Source of the DNA: a virus
Reading direction: 5' to 3' (one strand)
Length of the DNA: 45,772 nt
Virus record (IMG/VR): IMGVR_UViG_3300037086_000398
Span: 68,362 to 114,133 of that record
Shown here: piece by piece, positions 3,404-41,787 of the stretch
Layout: each line of letters starts with the position of its first letter
Position numbering within the stretch: position 1 is the stretch's first letter
The notes under the pieces: model-generated
Databases searched by the model: none
Told to the model about the DNA's origin: nothing
What the model saw: only the letters and a program-made list of their open reading frames with translations
Translations under genes and position numbers: made by a program

Positions 3404-4282
3404 ATGGATTCACAAGTTCTCGAGCGCAAGTTCGAGCAAATGGGAGCGAAGATCGAAGCATTCAAGGACCTCGCCACTCGCGAAAGAATTGAAAGAATGC
3501 GCCGAATCGCTCAGAACCCCCGTGCCTTTGTCCGCAATCGCGGAGCAGGCACTCCACCAAGACTTGACGTTGTGAAGAGAGGCAAGGACGAAGTTTTCGT
3601 CGTTGATACTTTCGATCAGAACATCGACGTTCAAGTTATCGACGTTCGCCCAGACGACAGACATCTTCTTCTCATGTTCAAGAGATTGGACGGAAAGAGA
3701 GAAGTTTCTAAGTTTTTGTGCGGACATGACGAAAGACACTGGTTCGTCGCAGCTGTTCCAGAATCTGCCGGTGCTAAGAATGTAAAAGACGCGATGGAGG
3801 CTCTCAAGCCCGATCTCGTCAAGATTTCTTTGAAAAGAGCTGGCGTAAAGACCAAGCACCACAACAAGAGACACAATAAGGGATTTGTGAGACAGGGAGA
3901 ATGGTTTTTCATTCCAGCCCCAGATCTCCAGATTGATGAAAGATTCATTCACAAGAATGAACCAATCTCTCGCGGAAGAGGTGCAAAGCCACATCGCTGC
4001 CAGGAGCTCTATAGAACTGGCGGAGAGCAGGTTTGGGTCAACCACCAGCACGCACCAAACGGATTCACCGAGACACAGTACAAGGCTTTCATTATAGCGC
4101 ATCCTGAAGAAGGACCACGCCGCGGGGCATGGACTGTAATGATGAGAGGAGCTACCGCTTTTGTGCGTGGTTGGGTGAGACACCCCGATCACAGCACCAT
4201 CCACCTCGATGGTTGGCACAGAGTGGAAATGAACCTCGAAAACAAGGCCAAGGCCATGGAATTTGTCGCATTTCTCGATTAA
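3404..4282 (+). CDS. hypothetical basic, His/Arg-rich protein of foreign (GC-rich) origin; moron-like
   Basis: 292-aa ORF with a strong SD (AAGGAGG) 8 nt upstream. GC is about 50% against a much more AT-rich background, with codons such as CGC, GAC, CTC, GCC. Followed by a canonical terminator. The antisense 300-aa ORF is a GC artefact. Confidence 0.75.
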   Translation: MDSQVLERKFEQMGAKIEAFKDLATRERIERMRRIAQNPRAFVRNRGAGTPPRLDVVKRGKDEVFVVDTFDQNIDVQVIDVRPDDRHLLLMFKRLDGKREVSKFLCGHDERHWFVAAVPESAGAKNVKDAMEALKPDLVKISLKRAGVKTKHHNKRHNKGFVRQGEWFFIPAPDLQIDERFIHKNEPISRGRGAKPHRCQELYRTGGEQVWVNHQHAPNGFTETQYKAFIIAHPEEGPRRGAWTVMMRGATAFVRGWVRHPDHSTIHLDGWHRVEMNLENKAKAMEFVAFLD

Positions 4283-4286
4283 GATC

Positions 4287-4310
4287 AAGCCCCCGAAAGG
4301 GGGCTTTTTC
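4287..4310 (+). terminator. rho-independent terminator (GCCCCC-GAAA-GGGGGC + TTTTT)
   Basis: Perfect GC stem, GAAA tetraloop and T-tract immediately after the 3404-4282 stop. Confidence 0.7.
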
Positions 4311-4353
4311 ATTTACGGGCCAAAAGTTATAAGATAGTTTAGAGGAGGCTCGT

Positions 4354-5042: not shown

Positions 5043-5047
5043 CCAGA

Positions 5048-5071
5048 GGGGCATCTAAAAATGCCCCTTTT
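5048..5071 (+). terminator. rho-independent terminator (GGGGCAT-loop-ATGCCCC + TTTT)
   Basis: Hairpin and T-tract directly after the 5042 stop. Confidence 0.55.
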
Positions 5072-5130
5072 CATCCTACGGGCATAGAAAGATAAGATAA
5101 ATGTAGCATTCTCATATACAGGAAGTCACT

Positions 5131-11446: not shown

Positions 11447-11505
11447 CACAATTCATCTCATCAAACGCCATAATAAGATAAACTAAAGCAAATTGTAGGA
11501 TCATT

Positions 11506-15938: not shown

Positions 15939-15963
15939 TTAAGCCATTTTTACTCATAACTTA

Positions 15964-15988
15964 GGGAGCCGAAAGGCTCCCTTTTTTT
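15964..15988 (+). terminator. rho-independent terminator (GGGAGCC-GAAA-GGCTCCC + T7)
   Basis: Perfect hairpin with a GAAA loop and a 7-T tract after the sheath gene. Confidence 0.7.
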
Positions 15989-16088
15989 GTCTTTAGATCA
16001 TAACAAATCTTTTGACATTTTCGATAAAGTGTCTGAAAGATAATAGTAAGTGATTTTGGGTATTTAGAACTGAAATGGAGGTTAAACC

Positions 16089-16643: not shown

Positions 16644-16659
16644 TAATTCAGAAGACTCA

Positions 16660-16684
16660 GGGGGCTAACAAGCCCCCTTGTTTA
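16660..16684 (+). terminator. rho-independent terminator (GGGGGCT-AACA-AGCCCCC + TTGTTT)
   Basis: Hairpin after the tube gene. Confidence 0.65.
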
Positions 16685-16708
16685 CATAACACTCAAGGAT
16701 AACATAGC

Positions 16709-24676: not shown

Positions 24677-24976
24677 ATGGACGAAAAAAACAACGTGCTA
24701 CATATTCCACCAAATACAATTCTCTTTGGTCAGTTCTTGATTGAAAAGAAAAAAATTGATCAGGCCAAACTTAATGCAGCTTTGGAAATACAGAAAAAAG
24801 AGGATAGTTTAAACCTGAGACAAAGTCATCGTCTATTAGGAGTGATTCTATTGGAGAACCTTCATGTTTTCAAAGACAGAATAGAACTAAATCACTACTT
24901 GCAGGAGTATAGTTCTTTCAGAGAAGATGTTGAGGCCAGAATCTATAAAGCAAAAATGGAATCAAACAAAAAATAA
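24677..24976 (+). CDS. hypothetical protein
   Basis: 99 aa, starting at the stop of the upstream gene. Confidence 0.5.
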   Translation: MDEKNNVLHIPPNTILFGQFLIEKKKIDQAKLNAALEIQKKEDSLNLRQSHRLLGVILLENLHVFKDRIELNHYLQEYSSFREDVEARIYKAKMESNKK

Positions 24977-25019
24977 GAAAAGCATATTTAACTAATAGTT
25001 TAGAAAGTAGGAGTTAAAA

Positions 25020-25316
25020 ATGGGCAAGCTTTTCTTTCAAGATGATAACGGCACACAGCATCAAATAAATTTACAAAATGTTCAGACAAAATACTTTAGT
25101 CCTGGTGATGTAATTGTAGCTTACTACGAAGTAGGTGAAACCCCCCTCGATCAATCAAACATGGCTTTGGAACAACTTCAAACTCTTTTGAAATCTGTAT
25201 TTCCACCAGAGATTAAAGTTGTCACTATCGCCACTCGACATGGTTCAAAAGACGTCGATATAAAATCATTCAAACATAAAGGAAACGTAGAGGTACCAAA
25301 CAATGGACAAGGATAA
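25020..25316 (+). CDS. hypothetical protein (UvsY-like accessory role possible by position only)
   Basis: 98 aa, directly upstream of and overlapping the recombinase gene. Confidence 0.45.
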   Translation: MGKLFFQDDNGTQHQINLQNVQTKYFSPGDVIVAYYEVGETPLDQSNMALEQLQTLLKSVFPPEIKVVTIATRHGSKDVDIKSFKHKGNVEVPNNGQG

Positions 25317-26622
25317 CATTAGAGAAGAACTTATCAAAAACTTCAAGAAAGAATTTCCAGATTCTCCACTGGAACCAATGGATAAAAGTGAGCTTGCAGA
25401 GATTCCTAGCTGGATAACGACTGGAAACTATGCACTCAACTGGGGAATCAGTAAAGACATGTTTAGGGGTCTCCCGGGAGGAAGAGTTGTCTTACTTTCT
25501 GGTGATCCATCTTCTGGAAAATCAATGATTTCTCTCTCAATGATGAGGGAGCCATCAATTGATCTCATCATCTATCTTGATTCTGAGGGTGGCAGTGTCA
25601 CAAAAGAATTTGCTAGATTCCTTGGAATTGACACAAAGAAAATTCTATATTCACAGGTTGACACTGTCGAAGAACTCAAGACTAGAATGGCTCTTACTAT
25701 CGATACTATCGAGAAAAATAAGAGTAGCAAAAAAGTTCTCATGATCATAGACTCTATTTCTATGATTACGACTGATAAAGAAAAAAATCCTGAAGCTGGA
25801 GCAGACATGGGAAATAGAGCGAAACTCATGCGCTCATTCTTCCGTCAGTATGTTCGCAAAATGCAGAAAATGAACATCTGTGTCGTCGGAACCGCACACC
25901 TCACAGAAAATATTGGTGGGTATGGACCATCAAAAATAGTTTCTGGTGGAACAATCTTCGGATATGTTCCATCTGTAGAAGTCCGTTTCTCCAAGATCAA
26001 TGCTGAATCCGAAACTGAGCGAACCGCTGTTGGAACTTCACTAGTGAAGATCCGAGCAGAGATGGTAAAATCACGTCTTGGAACTCTTGGAAAAATTGTT
26101 AAGTTTGACCTTGATCTTCAGACTGGTCTAGACCCATATGCTGGCATTGCAGACATCTTAAAAGACTATCAATTCGTAATTCCCGCCGCAAAGGATGTTG
26201 AAGAGCAGATCAAAAACAAAGAAACTCCTAAGAAATCCACTGGATGGTGGATGTTTAAGCCTTGGGATTGTCCTCCAGTAAGTGTTCTCATTTCTAAGAT
26301 GAGAGAGGAAAATCTTCTTACAGTTGATGGAAAGTTTAGGGATGATAAGATAAAGGAATGGTCAAAAGACGTTCCTTGGTTCTTAAAGGAAATTCAGAGA
26401 GTATTGGATTCCGTTTATGCTGAAGACGAATTCAAAACAGAATCAACAGAAACTGAAGAACCAATCGAAGAAAATTCAGCTGAAACCCCAGTTCAAGAAA
26501 AACCGACAAGAAGGAAAAGAGGTGCGGGAGTATCAGTTATGGAAACTATTGCTGAGCCACCAGCTGAAGAGATCGTTGAGACTACACCGATTACACAAGT
26601 TACAGAGCCAGCTTCCGTCTAA
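25303..26622 (+). CDS. uvsX: UvsX/RecA-like recombinase
   Basis: 439 aa. Walker A GDPSSGKS, RecA-core blocks (IIDSISMITT, NICVVGTAHLTEN, KFDLDLQTGLDPYAGIADI), acidic C-terminal tail. Block order is collinear with T4 UvsX. Confidence 0.85.
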   Translation: MDKDNIREELIKNFKKEFPDSPLEPMDKSELAEIPSWITTGNYALNWGISKDMFRGLPGGRVVLLSGDPSSGKSMISLSMMREPSIDLIIYLDSEGGSVTKEFARFLGIDTKKILYSQVDTVEELKTRMALTIDTIEKNKSSKKVLMIIDSISMITTDKEKNPEAGADMGNRAKLMRSFFRQYVRKMQKMNICVVGTAHLTENIGGYGPSKIVSGGTIFGYVPSVEVRFSKINAESETERTAVGTSLVKIRAEMVKSRLGTLGKIVKFDLDLQTGLDPYAGIADILKDYQFVIPAAKDVEEQIKNKETPKKSTGWWMFKPWDCPPVSVLISKMREENLLTVDGKFRDDKIKEWSKDVPWFLKEIQRVLDSVYAEDEFKTESTETEEPIEENSAETPVQEKPTRRKRGAGVSVMETIAEPPAEEIVETTPITQVTEPASV

Positions 26623-26784
26623 ATTTTTGCATATATTGTATTGATGAGGCTTACGGAGCAGGTCCAAACCGTCCAGTCACGCAATTCCGGGCAGTGTGGT
26701 TCAACGAAGAACTCACTTTGACCGAATTGAGTCATTGCCATATTGGATAAGTCTGCCGTAAGCCTCTTCTTTAAAGGAAGAAGA

Positions 26785-27114
26785 ATGAAACGAAATTTTT
26801 TGATCGTTTTAATAGTTCTGTTGATAGTGGGATGTTCTTCTTTCTCACTGTCGAATCCATTTCTAGGTGATTGGTCATTTGGAACTGGAAAAACAAAAGT
26901 AGATTTTTTGTTTGGAACTAGTGGAATGGTGAAAATTTCTGGTCCAAAATTTGCTGGGGTGGCTGATTACAGTTGGGACGGAGATTCACTAACTTTAAAA
27001 TACCGAACGGATTCAAGAATTTTATATTATCACTTTACATTTTCAAAGGATCATATAAAATTGAATCTTGAGGACGTCACAAAAAATATAATAGTGCTAA
27101 CGAAAGGGAAATGA
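26785..27114 (+). CDS. lipoprotein
   Basis: Start at MKRNFLIVLIVLLIVGCSS (lipobox LIVGC) with RBS AAAGGAAG. The ORF track's longer start at 26743 lacks an RBS. Confidence 0.6.
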   Translation: MKRNFLIVLIVLLIVGCSSFSLSNPFLGDWSFGTGKTKVDFLFGTSGMVKISGPKFAGVADYSWDGDSLTLKYRTDSRILYYHFTFSKDHIKLNLEDVTKNIIVLTKGK

Positions 27115-27566
27115 TGGATCTTAAGATTGTTGATCCGAAGGAAGTGGAAGGTGTTGTTTGTGAACCAGTTTCTGCTAATGATGTAGAAGCCATTATAAAC
27201 GAAACGGTTCCACAAATGAAGAAGATTCTTTTTGATTTGAATGGCTACGGCCTTGCCGCACCCCAAGTTGGAATCAAGAAAATGTTTTTCATCATCAGAG
27301 ATGGAATTGATGTTAGAACTTTTTTCAATGCAAAATATGCCAAAGCGTCTGACGGTAGGGTATCAAACGAAGAGGGATGTTTGTCGTATGGTTTTGGAAA
27401 GCGCCACGTTCCAGTGAAGAGATTTAAAAACGTGGTGGTGATTTGGGATGAGTGGAGTGGAAAGGCGTTCATTCGCAGAAGTCAGAAATTTAACGGACTC
27501 AACTCAGTAGCATTTCAGCATGAGATTGATCATATTAATGGCACAACAATTTTTACAAGAAGGTAA
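27111..27566 (+). CDS. def: peptide deformylase
   Basis: 151 aa with all three PDF motifs: GLAAPQVG, EGCLS, QHEIDHING (HExxH). Confidence 0.85.
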   Translation: MMDLKIVDPKEVEGVVCEPVSANDVEAIINETVPQMKKILFDLNGYGLAAPQVGIKKMFFIIRDGIDVRTFFNAKYAKASDGRVSNEEGCLSYGFGKRHVPVKRFKNVVVIWDEWSGKAFIRRSQKFNGLNSVAFQHEIDHINGTTIFTRR

Positions 27567-27575
27567 GGGACATAA

Positions 27576-27800
27576 ATGGCACAAATTATCGTTGGCAAAG
27601 ATGAACCACTTGAGGCGGCAATCAGACGTTTCAAGAAGAAACAAGAAGCAGAAGGTATTATCAAGGCCTACAAAGAAAAGCAGTTTTTCACAAAACCTTC
27701 GGCAAAAAGAAGAGAAAAGAGAAAAGAAGCTCTTCGAAAGCAGATGGTAAAGAAGATCAGAAAAGACAAAAGGGTTCATGACGCCACCAGAAAGGTCTAA
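27576..27800 (+). CDS. rpsU: ribosomal protein bS21 homologue
   Basis: 74 aa; MAQIIVGKDEPLEAAIRRFKKKQEAEGIIKAYKEKQFFTKPSAKRREKRKEA matches the bacterial S21 consensus (VxENEPxxxALRRFKR...E.G...R.FyEKPS.kRk). Confidence 0.8.
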   Translation: MAQIIVGKDEPLEAAIRRFKKKQEAEGIIKAYKEKQFFTKPSAKRREKRKEALRKQMVKKIRKDKRVHDATRKV

Positions 27801-27802
27801 CT

Positions 27803-28852
27803 ATGCATCTCGGTTGGCCCTTAATTTTCTCAATCCTCTTGTTCATTGGAATAGGCCTTAGTCTTTATTCACTTATAAAAAAGAGGGTGTTCCAAAAAAT
27901 CATAAAATTTTTCGTAAGGACAAAAAATATGCCGGATCAAAATCAGCCTCTACAGCCAGCGATTCCAGCCAATAATCCTGGAACTGTTCCTATAACACTT
28001 CAACCTGTAGCCCCAGCCCAGCCTGGAGATAAATTGCATTTTCAGCCACCCATTTTCCCACAGATTCAAACTCTTGATAAGACAGCCTACAATGATTTCA
28101 TGAGTAAATATGATGACGGCAGTGGAACTTTTCCAAACATGGTTTATCGAAGAGGAGCTGGTGTCACTTGTCCATTTGGAATTGCTGAGGGGTATAAAAT
28201 CAAGGCAGATGGAAGCATGGAATGGGGATGGGTGAGAATTCATACCGGAGTGGATAGAGCTGGTGCTCTTTCTGTTACTGACACTCAGGGAAAAGTATGG
28301 AAGGATGCGGTTATCAATCCATTTGATGCTGACGTCACTGATTCTATTTACTATGGGGCTCATGTTTCTTATGGATTTTTGACTATGATTTATTTAACAA
28401 AATATGGCTTTATGTTTTGGATTGGACACATGCAGCCGGGCGTAGATCTCAACCCATGGGTGTATCAGCAGCTCAAGGTAAGGGCCCCAATTCAAAGAGG
28501 AGTCATTCTTGGAAGTGCTGGAGACTTTGGCGAAAGTGGTGGATCTCACACTCACACAGAGCTTTACTCAATCGCTGAAAGATCCGAAACAATTGAATTG
28601 TGTCTCTATGCAAAATTTGGTGACGACATTTTCAAGGAGTACTCCACAGACGAAATCCTTCAAGGATATAGAGAGTTTGATCACTTTGCGGATCCAAGTA
28701 TCAAGGACGAAGTAATTCTTCAAGATTGGCAAGTACAGAAGGCTGCAAGAAATGCCTTCTTTATCAACAAATACATGTATCGTTTCAACGAAGGTGGATC
28801 TGGAAGAACTAAGACTAGATATTCAACCACCTATGCTTTTGCAGGACTCTGA
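27803..28852 (+). CDS. M23-family metallopeptidase with an N-terminal TM/signal-anchor and Pro-rich linker (lysis or peptidoglycan-remodelling candidate)
   Basis: 349 aa. TM LGWPLIFSILLFIGIGLSLYSLI; M23-like HTGVDRA and GGSHTHTE (HxH) motifs. Confidence 0.55.
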   Translation: MHLGWPLIFSILLFIGIGLSLYSLIKKRVFQKIIKFFVRTKNMPDQNQPLQPAIPANNPGTVPITLQPVAPAQPGDKLHFQPPIFPQIQTLDKTAYNDFMSKYDDGSGTFPNMVYRRGAGVTCPFGIAEGYKIKADGSMEWGWVRIHTGVDRAGALSVTDTQGKVWKDAVINPFDADVTDSIYYGAHVSYGFLTMIYLTKYGFMFWIGHMQPGVDLNPWVYQQLKVRAPIQRGVILGSAGDFGESGGSHTHTELYSIAERSETIELCLYAKFGDDIFKEYSTDEILQGYREFDHFADPSIKDEVILQDWQVQKAARNAFFINKYMYRFNEGGSGRTKTRYSTTYAFAGL

Positions 28853-29412
28853 TGATTGTACATGTTGATATGGACAATACTGCAAATGATTTTAGTGGTG
28901 GATTCATAACAGAATTCAACAGAATTACTGGATCAAACTTTGTGCTACCACGTGAAAACCATGCGGAATATGAAATCTTCAAAAACATTCCCAACATTGT
29001 CAATGGAGATGGCGTAAAACTCAGAGAACAAATCTTTACCACTCCAAAATTCTGGGAAAATCTTGAACCAATGCCAGATTTTGAGAGAATAATGAAACTA
29101 CTCTGCAACAAATACAGTGCTGATGCTGGAGATGTTTATATTCTAACAGCAGCCTGGCCAACATATGAAGATTGTTGGACTGAGAAAGTCAGATGGGTAA
29201 AGAAAGTTCTCCCATTTTTTGATCTACATAAAATTATTTTTTCATGGAACAAATCGATCATCAAAGGAGACATACTTATTGATGACTCTCCAAAATACTT
29301 GGAGACATTCAATGGAGACAGTGTGGCATATGATTGGCCCTATAACCGAAATGTAAAGGTTGAATATAGAGTTCATAACTGGGAAGAAATTGGGAGGTAC
29401 TTGAGAGTATGA
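28852..29412 (+). CDS. 5'(3')-deoxyribonucleotidase, HAD superfamily (NT5C-like)
   Basis: 186 aa. DxDxT motif VDMDNT at the N-terminus and DILIDD motif IV. Confidence 0.6.
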   Translation: MIVHVDMDNTANDFSGGFITEFNRITGSNFVLPRENHAEYEIFKNIPNIVNGDGVKLREQIFTTPKFWENLEPMPDFERIMKLLCNKYSADAGDVYILTAAWPTYEDCWTEKVRWVKKVLPFFDLHKIIFSWNKSIIKGDILIDDSPKYLETFNGDSVAYDWPYNRNVKVEYRVHNWEEIGRYLRV

Positions 29413-29798
29413 GTGATGAGATGTTGGAGCAGGTGGTTGACAATGGTCCTTTTATTCCCGAGGAGATTTACAAGATCAATTGGACAAGGCTCTTTAAAAT
29501 TGAGGCTAAGAAGGGTAAAAGGTTCAATTTCAAAAAAGATACCGAAGTTTCTGGATATGTTATTTTTGATATTCTTGTAAAGGCTGAAAAGTCGGAACAG
29601 GAAGAGTCAAAAGAAGAAAATAAAAACGAAAAGAAAGAAGAACCCTCTGACTACTGCGTCTTTAAGGGCAGAATCAATGGATCAAGAACTAGTTTTAGGA
29701 TTGACTTTGATACTTGTAAAATCGCCCTTGAAACAGGAATCTTGAGGCCGGCAAAAACAGATGCTGAGAGGGCGAAGGCAATCCTATCCGGAATCTAA
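29409..29798 (+). CDS. hypothetical protein with a Lys/Glu-rich stretch
   Basis: 129-aa ORF overlapping the upstream stop. Confidence 0.45.
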   Translation: MSDEMLEQVVDNGPFIPEEIYKINWTRLFKIEAKKGKRFNFKKDTEVSGYVIFDILVKAEKSEQEESKEENKNEKKEEPSDYCVFKGRINGSRTSFRIDFDTCKIALETGILRPAKTDAERAKAILSGI

Positions 29799-30039
29799 AA
29801 TCTCTATTTTCAAACTCAATGAGCCCTATGTAATAGACACTTATAATGGTTTCTATTATTTCATAGGCGTTAAATCGCATGGATTACAACACGGCCCCGC
29901 CTTTCAGTTTGAAAAGCTGAAAGGCGGTTATGAAATCGAAATTGGGCAAGCCTTAATAGAGCAGCTATTAGATGACAACAAAATTAGAAAATTGGAAGAA
30001 ACAGAGTTCGCTAAAGCCCTGCTTCTATTAAATGGTTAA
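29761..30039 (+). CDS. hypothetical protein
   Basis: 92-aa ORF. Confidence 0.4.
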   Translation: MLRGRRQSYPESKISIFKLNEPYVIDTYNGFYYFIGVKSHGLQHGPAFQFEKLKGGYEIEIGQALIEQLLDDNKIRKLEETEFAKALLLLNG

Positions 30040-30323
30040 TGGAGGAAGTTTATTTTGAGGGCGAATTAGAGCCTTATTCATACAACGAACCATTTTACTT
30101 TAACTTTGAAATTGGCCAAGTCTATTATCAAGTGATGAGGGGAGTGTATTACTTCAAAATGAGAGTTGGGAAGTTCTATATTTTTACAAAAAGCACGAGC
30201 AACAGATGGCCAACATTTGAAAGCATTGAAATTTTACCCGAAGAGTTCAATAAATGGATAAAAGAAAAGAGAATACGAAAACCAACGCTTTTAGAACACG
30301 CAAAAAGTCTGTTGAGCAGTTAG
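30039..30323 (+). CDS. hypothetical protein
   Basis: 94-aa ORF; TAATG overlap. Confidence 0.45.
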   Translation: MEEVYFEGELEPYSYNEPFYFNFEIGQVYYQVMRGVYYFKMRVGKFYIFTKSTSNRWPTFESIEILPEEFNKWIKEKRIRKPTLLEHAKSLLSS

Positions 30324-30658
30324 ATGTTGGAAAGAAATACCTCATTAGAGATAGTGGCATCTTTATCTATCAAGGTGTAGCAAAGGCTGAAATTTCTAAA
30401 AGCTTTTCCAACAAAACAGTAGTTGAATTTTCTGCAAACAATAAGACCATGTTCAAAGATAACTCTAATAAAGCTGGACTAAAAAAACCTCCGTATGGAA
30501 AGTCGATGGTTATGACACTTGAACAAGCGAACGTTGGCATTGGAACTGGATATATTAAAGAAGCTACTCCAGATATGGAAGCAAAAATTTTGTTATTAGG
30601 AGATGAAGATGGACGACGAATTCAAGGTCGAAGTAAAAATCAAAAGAGGCGTGTATAA
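30254..30658 (+). CDS. hypothetical protein
   Basis: 134-aa ORF overlapping the upstream gene by 70 nt; no alternative in-frame start found. Confidence 0.4.
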   Translation: MDKRKENTKTNAFRTRKKSVEQLDVGKKYLIRDSGIFIYQGVAKAEISKSFSNKTVVEFSANNKTMFKDNSNKAGLKKPPYGKSMVMTLEQANVGIGTGYIKEATPDMEAKILLLGDEDGRRIQGRSKNQKRRV

Positions 30659-30854
30659 ACATTTCAAGGGTGGTCTCTATATTGTAAAAGGAATGTCTCG
30701 ACATTCAGAGACAGAAGAACTTTTGGTTTCTTATCGATCTTGCAAAGACGGAACGAGGTGGGTAAGACCTTTGAAGAATTTTACTGAGAACATTATTGAT
30801 CCAACAACAAATAGATCTGTTCCTCGATTCGAATTGATTCATGAATGGCCTTAG
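30603..30854 (+). CDS. DUF1653-like small protein
   Basis: 83 aa; GVYKHFKGGLYIVKGMSRHSETEELLVSYRS...WVRPLKNF matches the DUF1653 pattern. Confidence 0.45.
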   Translation: MKMDDEFKVEVKIKRGVYKHFKGGLYIVKGMSRHSETEELLVSYRSCKDGTRWVRPLKNFTENIIDPTTNRSVPRFELIHEWP

Positions 30855-31057
30855 CATACTTTAAGCTAAAGGGGATACAAATGAATATGGAACATTTGTT
30901 TGATGGGTGGCTGAGCAGATCATTGTTTTTGAATTCGAGTGAGAAGATTGCAGAGTGTTGGAATACAATTTCGATTATTGCAATAAGTTTTGTCTATCTG
31001 GCATGGGCCGGGTATCTTTTGGTAGGATCAATCTTTTCTTATTTCATCATAAGGTAA
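30845..31057 (+). CDS. hypothetical small membrane protein
   Basis: 70 aa with hydrophobic C-terminus ISIIAISFVYLAWAGYLLVGSIFSYFII. Confidence 0.35.
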   Translation: MALAYFKLKGIQMNMEHLFDGWLSRSLFLNSSEKIAECWNTISIIAISFVYLAWAGYLLVGSIFSYFIIR

Positions 31058-38646: not shown

Positions 38647-41600
38647 GTGACCAAGTGGACCTGGATTCAACCCATCAGTGAGGAAGTATTCGCCAACAAA
38701 TATAAGTTTCATAGAAAGAATGTAGAAGAGGTTTTTGATGATATATCGACCGTAGTTTCAGGATCGGAAGATGTAGAAATAAGAAAAGACATCAAAGCTC
38801 GGTTTTATACTGAGATGATTGAGGGGAGATTCATCCCTGCGGGTAGAATTCTTGCAAATGCATGGCCAAAAAGTGGTATAAAGAACCTAATGAATTGTTA
38901 TACCATAGGGATTGATGACTCTATGGAAAGCATCTATGATTCTCTTAAGGAAGATGCGAGGATTAGTAAGGTTGGTGGTGGAGTCGGTTTTGACATTTCA
39001 AACTTAAGACCAAAAAACAGCCCCTTATCAGTAGGTGGTGAGGCTTCTGGTCCTATATCTTTCCTACGGATTTTTGATGCTTCAGCTAAGACCATCATGA
39101 CGGGTGGTTCGAGGAGAGCAGCCCACATCGCTCTCTTAGATGTTTCTCATCCTGATATTGAAGAGTTTATTACATGCAAACAGGGTGACAAAAACAAAGT
39201 ATTGACACAATTCAACATTAGTGTCAAAATCACAAACAAGTTTATGAATGCTGTTGAAAAGGATCTCGATTGGGATCTAAGTTTCAATGGCAAGATCTAC
39301 AAGACCGTGAAAGCGCGGTATCTTTATGATCTAATAGCTCGAAACGGGTTCGAACACAACGAACCTGGAATGTTTAATGTAGATATTGTAAATAAATACA
39401 ACAACGGATATTACAGCTATGTTATCAACGAATGCAATCCGTGTATTGTTGGAGATACTCTGATCGCGGTTGCTGATGGAAGGAATGCTATTTCTATTAG
39501 AGATCTAGCCGAGACTGGAGAAGATGTACCGGTCTATACTAAGGATGAAAAGGGCAAAACGGTGATTCGAATGATGAGGAATCCAAGAAGCACTGGATAC
39601 AATAAGAAGATAGTAAAAGTGAATCTTGATGATGGGACATACATTAGGTGCACGGAAAATCATAGCTTTATGCTCAATGATGGAACGTACAGAGAAGCCA
39701 AAAAATTGTTAGCCGGCGACAGTCTAAAGAGATTCGATTCTTATCCAAACAACAACTATCGACAGATCAACTCTGGTACCGCTCGAGATCGTAGACAATA
39801 CAAAATGATCGCTGAGTTTAACGACCTTATAACTGATGGCAAGACTCAAGCAGTTCATCATTATGATTTTGATTCACTTAATGATCTAGTAGAAAATCTT
39901 GTCGTGATGGATAGGCGAGAACATCACAAGATGCACTCTGAGAGAATGAAAGGAGCAAACAATCCTGTTAACAGATTCCCAGAGAAAAATCCATTCAACA
40001 ACCCAGAAATACAACAGAAGATCAGAGAAGAACATCATATTGGAGCAAAGAGAAGTGAGGAAACTCGAAGAAGAATTGGAGAGAAGACTAGAGAGAGATG
40101 CCAGGACCCAGTATATATGAAAAATTTTCGAGCCTCGTTGGTAGGAAAAAATCATAAGGTCCTTTTCGTTGAAGAAGATGGAATTGAAAATGTATACAAT
40201 GGGACTGTAGATGATTTCCACAATTATGCTGTAATAACTTCTCATGACGACGATCGATTTATTGGAAGCTCTGGTATATTCGTAAAAAATTGTGGTGAAC
40301 AGGCGCTTCCCCGGTACGGTATATGTAATCTTGGTGCAATTAATCTAGCAAAGTTTATCAAGAATGAATTTGAAGACAACGCCGAGTTTGATTTTTTGGC
40401 GTTTGCAGAGACTACAAGGCTCGGTGTGAGATTTCTTGATAATGTACTAGACGCCTCAGAATACCCACTTGAAAAAGTGGCGAAGCATGCTCATGACTGG
40501 AGAAGAATCGGACTTGGTTTCACTGGACTTGGCAATGTTTTTGCGATGATGAAAATCAAGTACGGATCAGAGGAATCAAAGAAGTTAAGCAGGGAAATCG
40601 CAAAATCTCTCCGCGACAACTCGTATCTAGCATCAGCTCACCTAGCTAAAGAAAAGGGCAAGTTTCCAAGTTGTGAAAAGGAAAAACTTCTTGAGTCCAA
40701 TTTCGTTAAGAAACTTCCAGAAGAAATCAAAACAATGATCTCGAAGCATGGTTTAAGAAATGTTTGCATTAATACCGTAGCACCAACTGGAACAATTTCT
40801 CTCACCATTGGTCAAAATTGCTCATCTGGAATTGAGCCAATCTTTGCTCTAGAGTATAAGAGAAGAGTAAGGAAGGTTGATGATGAATTTACTGAACAAG
40901 TTGTATATGATTATGGGTGGCTTCAGTACCAGGCTTGGTGTGCAAAGAAGGGTATTTTGTTTGATGCTAAGAAGGTCCCAGAGTATTTTGTAACGACAAA
41001 AGACATTAGCACTTATGACTCCATTGATGTTCAAGCCATTTTCCAGAAGTATGTTGACGCTTCAATTTCTAAGACTCTTAATTTGCCAGAGAATATTACT
41101 TTTGAAGAATACAAGAAACTCTTCAGCTACGCATATGAAAAAGAATTGAAGGGATTCACAACTTTTAATCCACTAGGTTCAATGAAGGGAATCTTGGAAT
41201 ATAATGATCCAAAAGAAGCAAATGGAAATGGTAATGGTGACAGTGGCCACGCCTCTTATATTAAGAGAAGAATGGCACCACATAGACCAGCCTCTCTAGA
41301 ATGTGACATTCATCAATTCATAGTAAAAGAAAAGAAGACTGTAGTTTTGGTTGGCAAGCTAAATGGTTCTTTATATGAAGTCTTTGTTGATGACGATGCA
41401 AACGGTTCTATTGACGGATCAAAATATACAACTGGAATCATTAAGAAAGCTGGACAAGGTCAATATAGTTTGATTGTTCATGAGGGTGAAAAAGAAAAGG
41501 TATTGGTGGAAAATCTGAGTAAAAACTTTGGTGGGACATATGGAAGTCTAGCGAGACTCGTTTCCATGTCTCTAAGGCATGGAACACCATTACAGTTTGT

Positions 41601-41787
41601 TGTCGATCAACTTTCAAAAAGTAAAGAATTTGGAGGATTTGAGAAGTCTGTTTCTCGAGTTCTCAAAAAGTATATCAAAGACGGAGAAGTTGTCATGACC
41701 TCAACCACTTGTCCTATGTGTGGAAGTGATCTGATATTTAAGGAGGGGTGTGTCAGCTGTCTCTGTGGCTGGTCCAAGTGCGCATAA
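38647..41787 (+). CDS. nrdJ: ribonucleotide reductase large subunit with class-II (NrdJ-type) NPCGE active-site motif, interrupted by an intein; C-terminal Zn ribbon
   Basis: 1046 aa with a GTG start and SD GGAGG. Contains GGGVGFDISNLRP and NECNP-[intein]-CGEQALP. C-terminal CPMCGS...CVSCLCGW. Confidence 0.85.
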   Translation: MTKWTWIQPISEEVFANKYKFHRKNVEEVFDDISTVVSGSEDVEIRKDIKARFYTEMIEGRFIPAGRILANAWPKSGIKNLMNCYTIGIDDSMESIYDSLKEDARISKVGGGVGFDISNLRPKNSPLSVGGEASGPISFLRIFDASAKTIMTGGSRRAAHIALLDVSHPDIEEFITCKQGDKNKVLTQFNISVKITNKFMNAVEKDLDWDLSFNGKIYKTVKARYLYDLIARNGFEHNEPGMFNVDIVNKYNNGYYSYVINECNPCIVGDTLIAVADGRNAISIRDLAETGEDVPVYTKDEKGKTVIRMMRNPRSTGYNKKIVKVNLDDGTYIRCTENHSFMLNDGTYREAKKLLAGDSLKRFDSYPNNNYRQINSGTARDRRQYKMIAEFNDLITDGKTQAVHHYDFDSLNDLVENLVVMDRREHHKMHSERMKGANNPVNRFPEKNPFNNPEIQQKIREEHHIGAKRSEETRRRIGEKTRERCQDPVYMKNFRASLVGKNHKVLFVEEDGIENVYNGTVDDFHNYAVITSHDDDRFIGSSGIFVKNCGEQALPRYGICNLGAINLAKFIKNEFEDNAEFDFLAFAETTRLGVRFLDNVLDASEYPLEKVAKHAHDWRRIGLGFTGLGNVFAMMKIKYGSEESKKLSREIAKSLRDNSYLASAHLAKEKGKFPSCEKEKLLESNFVKKLPEEIKTMISKHGLRNVCINTVAPTGTISLTIGQNCSSGIEPIFALEYKRRVRKVDDEFTEQVVYDYGWLQYQAWCAKKGILFDAKKVPEYFVTTKDISTYDSIDVQAIFQKYVDASISKTLNLPENITFEEYKKLFSYAYEKELKGFTTFNPLGSMKGILEYNDPKEANGNGNGDSGHASYIKRRMAPHRPASLECDIHQFIVKEKKTVVLVGKLNGSLYEVFVDDDANGSIDGSKYTTGIIKKAGQGQYSLIVHEGEKEKVLVENLSKNFGGTYGSLARLVSMSLRHGTPLQFVVDQLSKSKEFGGFEKSVSRVLKKYIKDGEVVMTSTTCPMCGSDLIFKEGCVSCLCGWSKCA
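39442..40290 (+). mobile_element. intein (283 aa) with an HNH-type homing endonuclease domain, inserted in the RNR catalytic NPC|GE motif
   Basis: Begins CIVGDTLIAV (block A) and contains TENHSF (block B). HNH-like HHYDFDSLNDLVENLVVMDRREHHKMH. Ends ...IFVKN followed by +1 Cys. The reconstituted extein reads NECNPCGEQ. Confidence 0.75.

Follow-up and report, generated by a model that had tools for sequence, protein, structure and literature searches.

In a stretch of viral DNA of 45,772 nt (hereafter the window), positions 68,362 to 114,133 of IMG/VR virus record IMGVR_UViG_3300037086_000398, we identified a gene for peptide deformylase (PDF; def) followed 9 nt downstream on the same strand by a gene for ribosomal protein bS21 (rpsU). 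In 10/10 sampled lineages, the window included, def precedes rpsU on one and the same strand, and this linkage is specific to one clade of T4-like phages rather than general to phages that carry S21 or PDF. The reading we favour, at a probability of about 0.7, is that these are two auxiliary translation genes co-expressed from one early or middle mRNA, the bS21 entering the host 30S subunit and the PDF deformylating nascent chains, with the linkage kept for co-regulation. Both genes had been called in a first-pass annotation made from the sequence alone, and the coordinates (Table 1), spacing and identities it gave are borne out by profile matches, motifs and predicted fold.

Conservation of the def-rpsU pair

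Relatives were collected from a set of 5.8 billion proteins, queried first with the S21 and the PDF and then with an S21 profile of the clade, and their encoding contigs were looked up; this gave ten lineages (the window among them) that were counted without phylogenetic weighting. The two genes are directly adjacent, 9-54 nt apart, in the window, L001, L004, L254 and L260, while one small open reading frame (ORF) of 56-103 aa lies between them in L171 (= L256-258), L251, L253 and L259, and a 292-aa gene with a weak ROS_MUCR match, possibly a mobile insertion, in L261. The intervening ORFs of L171 (2761-2997) and L251 (5174-5344) are mutually homologous (…EFP.Y.FG.N.DG.LF.N…) and that of L253 is unrelated to them. 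As four of the lineages (L256-258, L259, L260 and L261) were chosen by S21 similarity alone, the linkage sample is not circular.

Identity to the window falls within the clade from 70 % to about 35 % for PDF and from 85 % to about 44-50 % for S21. Between the window and L001 the proportions of nonsynonymous (pN) and synonymous (pS) differences are 0.18 and 0.70 for def (pN/pS ~0.26) and 0.08 and 0.76 for rpsU (pN/pS ~0.10), and low pN at saturated synonymous sites (pS 0.70-0.76) indicates that both genes are under purifying selection.

Some of the longest phage-like contigs yet recorded (302-732 kb) belong to the clade with the linkage, namely JGI contig Ga0673036_0000002 (L001; 732,019 bp), L257 (388,268 bp) and L256 (301,692 bp). 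S21 occurs once on the 732-kb contig, which is therefore not a simple concatemer, and assemblies of the phage encoding protein P0083, made independently from several samples, came to ~300-390 kb. By these lengths the clade looks to be one of huge T4-like phages, close to the upper limit of known phage sizes, and the def-rpsU locus could serve as a marker with which to find and classify them. A 72-kb contig of the same clade (L252) is present in NCBI assembly GCA_001188585.2.

The def product is a short peptide deformylase

The def product matches the Pfam family Pep_deformylase (PF01327; E=1e-24, 87.4 bits against a cut-off of 22.8) over profile positions 14-149 of 156, and PHROG 2890 'peptide deformylase' (E=2e-22). 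The motifs of these enzymes hold the metal ligands Cys, His and His, the catalytic Glu and a Gln. All three catalytic motifs are present (GYGLAAPQ at 45-52, EGCLS at 88-92 and QHEIDH at 136-141) and are invariant in an alignment of 76 sequences. An AlphaFold model (AF2, 76 homologues) reached a mean predicted local distance difference test score (pLDDT) of 91.9 and a predicted template modelling score (pTM) of 0.88, an earlier run from an 8-sequence alignment (pLDDT 65.5) having been set aside in its favour. The top 50 Foldseek matches of this model in the Protein Data Bank (PDB) are all PDFs, with template modelling (TM) scores of 0.77-0.86 (best 0.82-0.86). By identity, motifs and modelled fold def encodes a genuine peptide deformylase, for which deformylase activity is predicted.

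The protein ends 10 residues past HEIDH, as in all clade members, and therefore lacks the C-terminal alpha3 helix with which the PDF of E. coli binds the ribosome beside the exit tunnel, a lack that is typical of viral PDFs; in the model the helix at 129-142 is followed by coil. By sequence the protein is of the short 'viral' form and groups with truncated viral PDFs, not with the housekeeping type 1B. Its closest described counterparts are the PDFs of Vibrio phage Vp16 (PDB 5MTC) and cyanophage S-SSM7 (PDB 3UWA), which share the three motifs, the classical fold and the absence of alpha3 (PMC5591237, PMC3660681). Both are among its best PDB sequence matches, 3UWA also by fold, although identity to either is only ~32 %. 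Its C-terminus (IFTRR) extends four residues beyond that of Vp16 PDF, residues are retained at the eta3 positions, and an adjacent S21 gene, as found in the window, has not been reported for Vp16 or S-SSM7. Vp16 PDF, without a C-terminal domain, complements an E. coli def mutant and is active in vivo (PMC5591237). The description of phage PDF as known mainly from cyanophages, given in the first-pass annotation, is outdated, since the enzyme is abundant in marine viromes and has been reported from Vibrio phage Vp16, huge phages and the pelagimyophage core (PMC5591237, PMC7162821, PMC7029224).

The rpsU product is a basic-tailed bS21

The rpsU product matches Pfam Ribosomal_S21 (PF01165; E=3e-16, 59.1 bits against a cut-off of 27) over positions 1-54 of 55, the NCBIfam equivalog TIGR00030 (58.2 bits, cut-off 28.95) and PHROG 21469, and can be aligned over its full length with bS21 chains of solved structure (their residues 1-66). 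The profile matches of both products far exceed what chance would yield. Whether this 74-aa protein holds the conserved S21 core was checked by alignment with E. coli and pelagiphage S21, and the core is present (RRFK..., G27 and KPS at 40-42). The C-terminal tail is strongly basic, with 16 Lys and Arg to 4 Asp and Glu (net +12, isoelectric point 11.7), and residue 54 is Arg. All seven clade S21s scored have Arg at the corresponding position (S42+12) and a tail of net +6 to +13, whereas all the Bacteroidota S21s we retrieved have Tyr54 and a tail of net 0 to +3. Tyr54 and a weakly basic C-terminal domain are the signature of Bacteroidia bS21, features that sequester the anti-Shine-Dalgarno (anti-SD) sequence (Jha et al. 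2021; PMC7797042), and the rpsU product, with its Arg54 and net +12, departs from that type. By sequence it is a full-length bS21 of the basic-tailed, SD-competent type.

A tblastn search with the S21 gave nothing at 1e-5 and only N-terminal-half matches at E<=1, and a single-protein scan of IMG/VR found none. What follows on nearest cellular relatives comes from word-seeded protein searches and pattern-seeded locus scans, not phylogenies, and is to be read as hints.

The lack of both Bacteroidia signatures (PMC7797042, PMC9976891) raises an alternative that we consider improbable, namely that the pair is a functional unit acting in a Bacteroidia-type host, in which the phage bS21, Tyr54-less and basic-tailed, would displace host bS21 and free the anti-SD while the co-expressed PDF handles a burst of nascent chains. 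If true, a phage bS21 would switch SD-ignoring ribosomes to SD-led phage messages, with the co-translated helix-less PDF keeping pace with deformylation. The phage genes are indeed SD-enriched (see below), yet an SD-using host explains all the data more simply, and the hints as to the host are weak and divided. The cellular S21s with the closest N-terminal halves are from Bacteroidota and Omnitrophota, in a pattern-biased genome scan, whereas the named cellular matches of the profile search are Treponematales and Bacillota and the nearest cellular PDFs stand in an alphaproteobacterial-type def-fmt-truA context (compare L255). The best GenBank match of the tail sheath is from a Flavobacterium phage (36 % identity), and the 732-kb contig of a close relative falls in a size class assigned to Bacteroidetes hosts by Al-Shayeb et al. 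(PMC7162821); published Bacteroidetes bS21 phages, however, carry a host-like S21 (PMC9723584).

Expression signals around def and rpsU

The 3′ end of def contains the ribosome-binding site of rpsU (a weak AAGG/GGGA), and no terminator-like site is found on the + strand between the two genes. A scan of 24900-31000 for sigma70 promoters and terminators gave nothing above shuffled controls. From this geometry def and rpsU are likely to be co-transcribed, and they are probably translationally coupled, given the 9-nt gap and the placement of the rpsU site within the end of def. The first-pass annotation had held that the phage relies on strong SD sequences. Across the window SD-like motifs are enriched before genes (>=4-mer in 55 % and >=5-mer in 33 %, against 18 % and 5 % of random windows), which agrees with that view, but def and rpsU themselves have only weak AAGG-type 4-mer sites.

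The pair sits in a T4-like replication and recombination module that is marked by uvsX, and uvsX is syntenic 5′ of def in L001, L171, L251, L259 and L260. In T4 uvsX, 46/47 and the nrd genes are early or middle genes, and by analogy def-rpsU is probably expressed in the early or middle phase and not late. No match to the T4 late promoter TATAAATA occurs in the window. The motif ATAAGATA occurs 25-40 nt 5′ of the start codon of three structural-module genes and is absent before the gene string that holds def and rpsU; it is a candidate late-promoter consensus in place of TATAAATA. Canonical GC-hairpin/T-run terminators were seen in the structural module at 4283-4353, 5043-5130, 11447-11505, 15939-16088 and 16644-16708, and at three of these five ATAAGATA(A) follows before the next start codon. 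A further candidate promoter motif, GCATATATT, was rejected, as it does not recur like one. In L260 a canonical terminator stands 5′ of the operon with def-rpsU, as does a sigma70-like promoter.

Immediately past the stop codon of uvsX the window contains a long imperfect hairpin (Table 1) with a minimum free energy of -50.8 kcal/mol (z = -5.7). Hairpins of like build and other sequence occupy the same site in L001 (9059-9183), L004 (465-564), L171 (2159-2258), L251 (4536-4632) and L254 (129-224), so that a structure of ~100-125 nt is found in six lineages with the window included, at folding z of -2.5 to -5.7. Between the window and L001 it shows 83 % nucleotide identity, which stands against the saturated synonymous sites noted above, with 2 compensatory and 3 wobble changes and 0/38 pairs broken. 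Rfam gave no match in the whole window at gathering thresholds, nor in 26500-27900 at E<=1, and the exact 20-mer core of the hairpin was not found in IMG/VR. The element is unlike the usual short GC/T-run terminators of this phage; L260 has a canonical terminator at the site and L259 has no strong structure there. It probably marks the boundary of the def-rpsU transcription unit, where it may act as a variant terminator, as a site of RNase processing or as a leader. A weaker variant of the reading in which the pair forms a functional unit would make it a cis-regulatory leader sensing bS21 or the status of the ribosome.

A model for the pair, weighed against shared descent

On the ribosome bS21 is bound loosely to the 30S platform and can be exchanged, and PDF acts at the 50S tunnel exit. 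In the model that we favour def and rpsU would be expressed from the same mRNA in the early or middle phase, and because bS21 is loosely bound the phage protein would enter the exchangeable bS21 site of host 30S subunits, thereby remodelling host ribosomes. There it would sustain or bias initiation on SD-led phage mRNAs after shutdown of host gene expression, while the helix-less PDF would strip formyl groups from the surge of nascent phage proteins without docking on the ribosome. The linkage would have arisen once in the ancestor of the clade and been kept since, co-regulation being the most likely reason. A physical partnership of PDF and bS21 was set aside in view of their separate places on the two subunits. 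Viral bS21 is known to incorporate into E. coli ribosomes (PMC6375957), and a role for phage bS21 in replacing the host protein to the advantage of phage mRNAs has been proposed (PMC9723584, PMC6375957).

The principal alternative, which we regard as possible though less likely, is that def and rpsU are neighbours by descent only, two independent auxiliary genes in a syntenic T4-like replication block whose adjacency has no function. The order uvsX, def, rpsU, M23-like gene, NT5C and helicase is collinear across relatives as such a block would be, yet its flanks change while the pair stays. The 5′ neighbour is uvsX in most lineages and an M16 peptidase gene in L253 and L260, and the 3′ side (with M23-like, C39_2 or inverted genes) is rearranged in L251, L256 and L004, with def still upstream of rpsU throughout. 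Pairwise PDF and S21 identities are only loosely correlated by rank (Spearman 0.30, p=0.18), though more clearly so by Pearson's coefficient (0.63, p=0.002).

Outside the clade, PDF was found within ±5 kb of S21 at 0/80 other S21-carrying viral loci of IMG/VR, and a more distant S21 on a 175-kb contig (L262) likewise has no PDF nearby. In a survey of 900 bS21 phages PDF falls outside the 20 commonest neighbours (PMC9723584). Among 79 cellular S21 loci none has def within 3 kb, and en bloc capture of the pair from a cellular def-rpsU locus is accordingly not supported. Conversely, S21 lies near 2 of the 80 nearest metagenome PDF loci. Of these two, L095 is an unremarkable bacterial region. The second locus (L131, 5480-6474 of Ga0207954_1000138) is on an unrelated, probably viral contig, where a divergent S21 (81 aa), an Arc-like ribbon-helix-helix protein and a short PDF (158 aa) form a tight three-gene string in the order opposite to that of the window. 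This single hint may reflect an independent clustering of the same two functions, which would speak against adjacency by descent only. A PDF scan of IMG/VR gave three distant loci only, none with S21. Scanned with the PDF alignment, metagenome contigs yielded only sequences of <=41 % identity and no close relative, which means that the clade is absent from that collection; it is also unrepresented in GenBank phages and, by three pattern scans, in IMG/VR.

Several observations weigh against the favoured model. Between the two genes ORFs of 56-292 aa are tolerated in 5/10 lineages, which makes direct translational coupling dispensable, and NT5C, functionally unrelated, is conserved alongside the pair; with these tolerated insertions and the conserved NT5C, functional coupling is inseparable from shared descent on present data. 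Adjacency is absent from the other S21 phages described above, and pelagimyophages hold both as core genes yet kilobases apart (PMC7029224), PDF and S21 of Mosig being separated by 5.5 kb and six genes. On the side of the products, the def product reaches 77.1 bits against a cut-off of 103.95 for the NCBIfam equivalog TIGR00079, several truncated PDFs of marine viruses gave no complementation in E. coli (PMC5591237), and with the bS21 of HTVC008M E. coli ribosomes lost nearly all in-vitro translation (PMC6375957). Of the two-gene translation-hijack module proposed in the first-pass annotation, the tight spacing and the linkage kept in relatives stand, whereas a dedicated functional module is put in doubt by adjacency in one clade only, the tolerated insertions and the co-conserved NT5C, and descent of a syntenic block as a whole accounts for the linkage just as well.

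Comparison with known phages

Phage bS21, truncated viral PDFs and the presence of both in T4-like pelagiphages and in huge phages are already published (PMC6375957, PMC9723584, PMC5591237, PMC3660681, PMC7162821, PMC7029224), and a phage with PDF and S21 is as such unsurprising to a specialist. The new elements are the conserved, usually operonic def→rpsU arrangement, the placement of bS21 and def in a replication rather than a structural module, and the occurrence of both in a T4-like clade that branches deeply, is uncultured and has contigs of 302, 388 and 732 kb.

The pelagimyophages HTVC008M and Mosig EXVC030M (Zaragoza-Solas et al. 2020, PMC7029224) are, like the phage of the window, T4-like aquatic myophages with PDF and S21 among their core genes, and both genes lie on the same strand of the replication/recombination region after gp46/47 homologues, as in the window. 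They differ in that Mosig PDF (184 aa) keeps the C-terminal helix, that pelagiphage S21 is ~33 % identical to the window S21, and that their genomes are ~140-150 kb against 300-730 kb for the clade contigs. In HTVC008M no PDF was found in the 24-kb stretch examined (12 kb either side of S21).

The freshwater Bacteroidetes bS21 phages (Chen et al. 2022, PMC9723584) and the virus-encoded ribosomal proteins of Mizuno et al. (2019, PMC6375957) resemble our case in a full-length bS21 under purifying selection. In the Bacteroidetes phages, however, bS21 is on the reverse strand in the structural module (terminase/capsid/protease) and expressed late, whereas in the window it is in the uvsX-helicase module beside def, tied to an enzyme of nascent-chain processing. 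The def-rpsU pair offers a clean, testable case for the debate on whether phage ribosomal proteins reprogramme or merely maintain host ribosomes. The huge phages of Al-Shayeb et al. (2020, PMC7162821) share with the clade very large genomes with S21 and PDF; the two are given separately in a general model there and a def-rpsU linkage is not described. Basic/aromatic N-terminal extensions of S21, found in some of those huge phages (PMC7162821), also occur in the clade members L004 and L261.

Genome context

By Pfam and PHROG profiles the window encodes a T4-like myophage, with tail sheath, baseplate hub, SbcCD-like gp46/47, UvsX, DEAD-box helicase and ribonucleotide reductase. A 5-kb region gave no nucleotide match to GenBank phages. 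UvsX is at most 31 % (~30 %) and the tail sheath at most 36 % identical to those of cultured phages, and with core genes so far from HTVC008M and the cyanomyophages the phage falls outside the pelagimyophages and the Kyanoviridae. On sequence grounds we take it for a very large, deep-branching T4-like myophage. ARAGORN predicted no tRNA or tmRNA gene in the window.

The T4-type structural and replication genes around the pair, in the window and in all relatives, confirm that the element is a phage, as had been noted at first pass, and essentially exclude that the region is cellular, that is, a bacterial def/rpsU locus or a mis-assembled chimera. A cellular origin might be read from the 732-kb contig of one relative and from the 13-kb uvsX-def-rpsU contig of another (L171; DAOTCN010000005.1, protein P0083), which is deposited in a 'Candidatus Paceibacterota' metagenome-assembled genome and whose S21 is named accordingly by NCBI; the latter is probably a mis-binned viral contig. 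The hallmarks of bacterial def loci, fmt and truA, are absent (compare L255), and the cellular S21 loci surveyed above have no def nearby.

Table 1 Features of the window around def and rpsU
Feature	Position	Strand	Remarks
uvsX-like recombinase	25303..26622	+	Pfam RecA E=2e-19; PHROG 97 'UvsX-like' E=2e-44
Long imperfect hairpin directly after uvsX stop	26643..26769	+	14-nt closing arms, 99 nt between
Small lipoprotein-like gene	26785..27114	+	signal peptide + Cys (LLIVGCSS); weak DUF5640 match only
def, peptide deformylase	27111..27566	+	151 aa, ATG..TAA
rpsU, ribosomal protein bS21	27576..27800	+	74 aa
349-aa membrane-anchored protein	27803..28852	+	no Pfam, PHROG or PDB-sequence match
NT5C-type 5′(3′)-deoxyribonucleotidase	28852..29412	+	Pfam NT5C E=2e-27
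129-aa ORF, function unassigned	29409..29798	+	last tightly packed member of the string; from ORF listing

def and rpsU belong to a tightly packed string of genes (26785-29798) with spacings of -4, +9, +2, -1 and -4 nt, followed by a gap of 455 nt. The stop codon of the lipoprotein-like gene overlaps the start of def (ATGA); this gene is 72 % identical in L001 and absent from more distant relatives. A transmembrane segment at the N-terminus and a Pro/Gln-rich linker are present in the 349-aa ORF, together with HxxxD / HxH motifs read by eye (IHTGVD ... SHTHTE), and its product may be an M23-like peptidase. Homologues lie 3′ of rpsU in L001, L254 and L253 and in inverted orientation in L251, while L256 has a reverse-strand gene of similar size in the slot, and L004 and L261 have a Peptidase_C39_2 protein in its place, perhaps because one cell-wall hydrolase gave way to a non-orthologous one. 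NT5C is kept 1-5 called genes 3′ of rpsU in every relative whose contig reaches that far.

An inverted repeat of 14 bp (29897-29927; CCGCCTTTCAGTTT / AAGCTGAAAGGCGG), 13/14 complementary and without a T-run after it, lies 100 nt past the last gene of the string, within the 455-nt stretch that holds no called gene in a screen for ORFs of >=60 aa. Elsewhere in the window two ORFs of ~300 aa, 3404-4282 (+) and 3410-4312 (-), overlap almost fully on opposite strands, and the large subunit of ribonucleotide reductase (38647-41787) carries an HNH-endonuclease-like insert. Core replication genes of the clade are often broken by mobile elements: uvsX is split by ~1.85 kb in L251 (1415-4528) and contains an intein in L261 (1352-2176), and inteins are also present in SbcC of L259 (1-1198) and, together with a LAGLIDADG domain, in the helicase of L260 (9061-11577).

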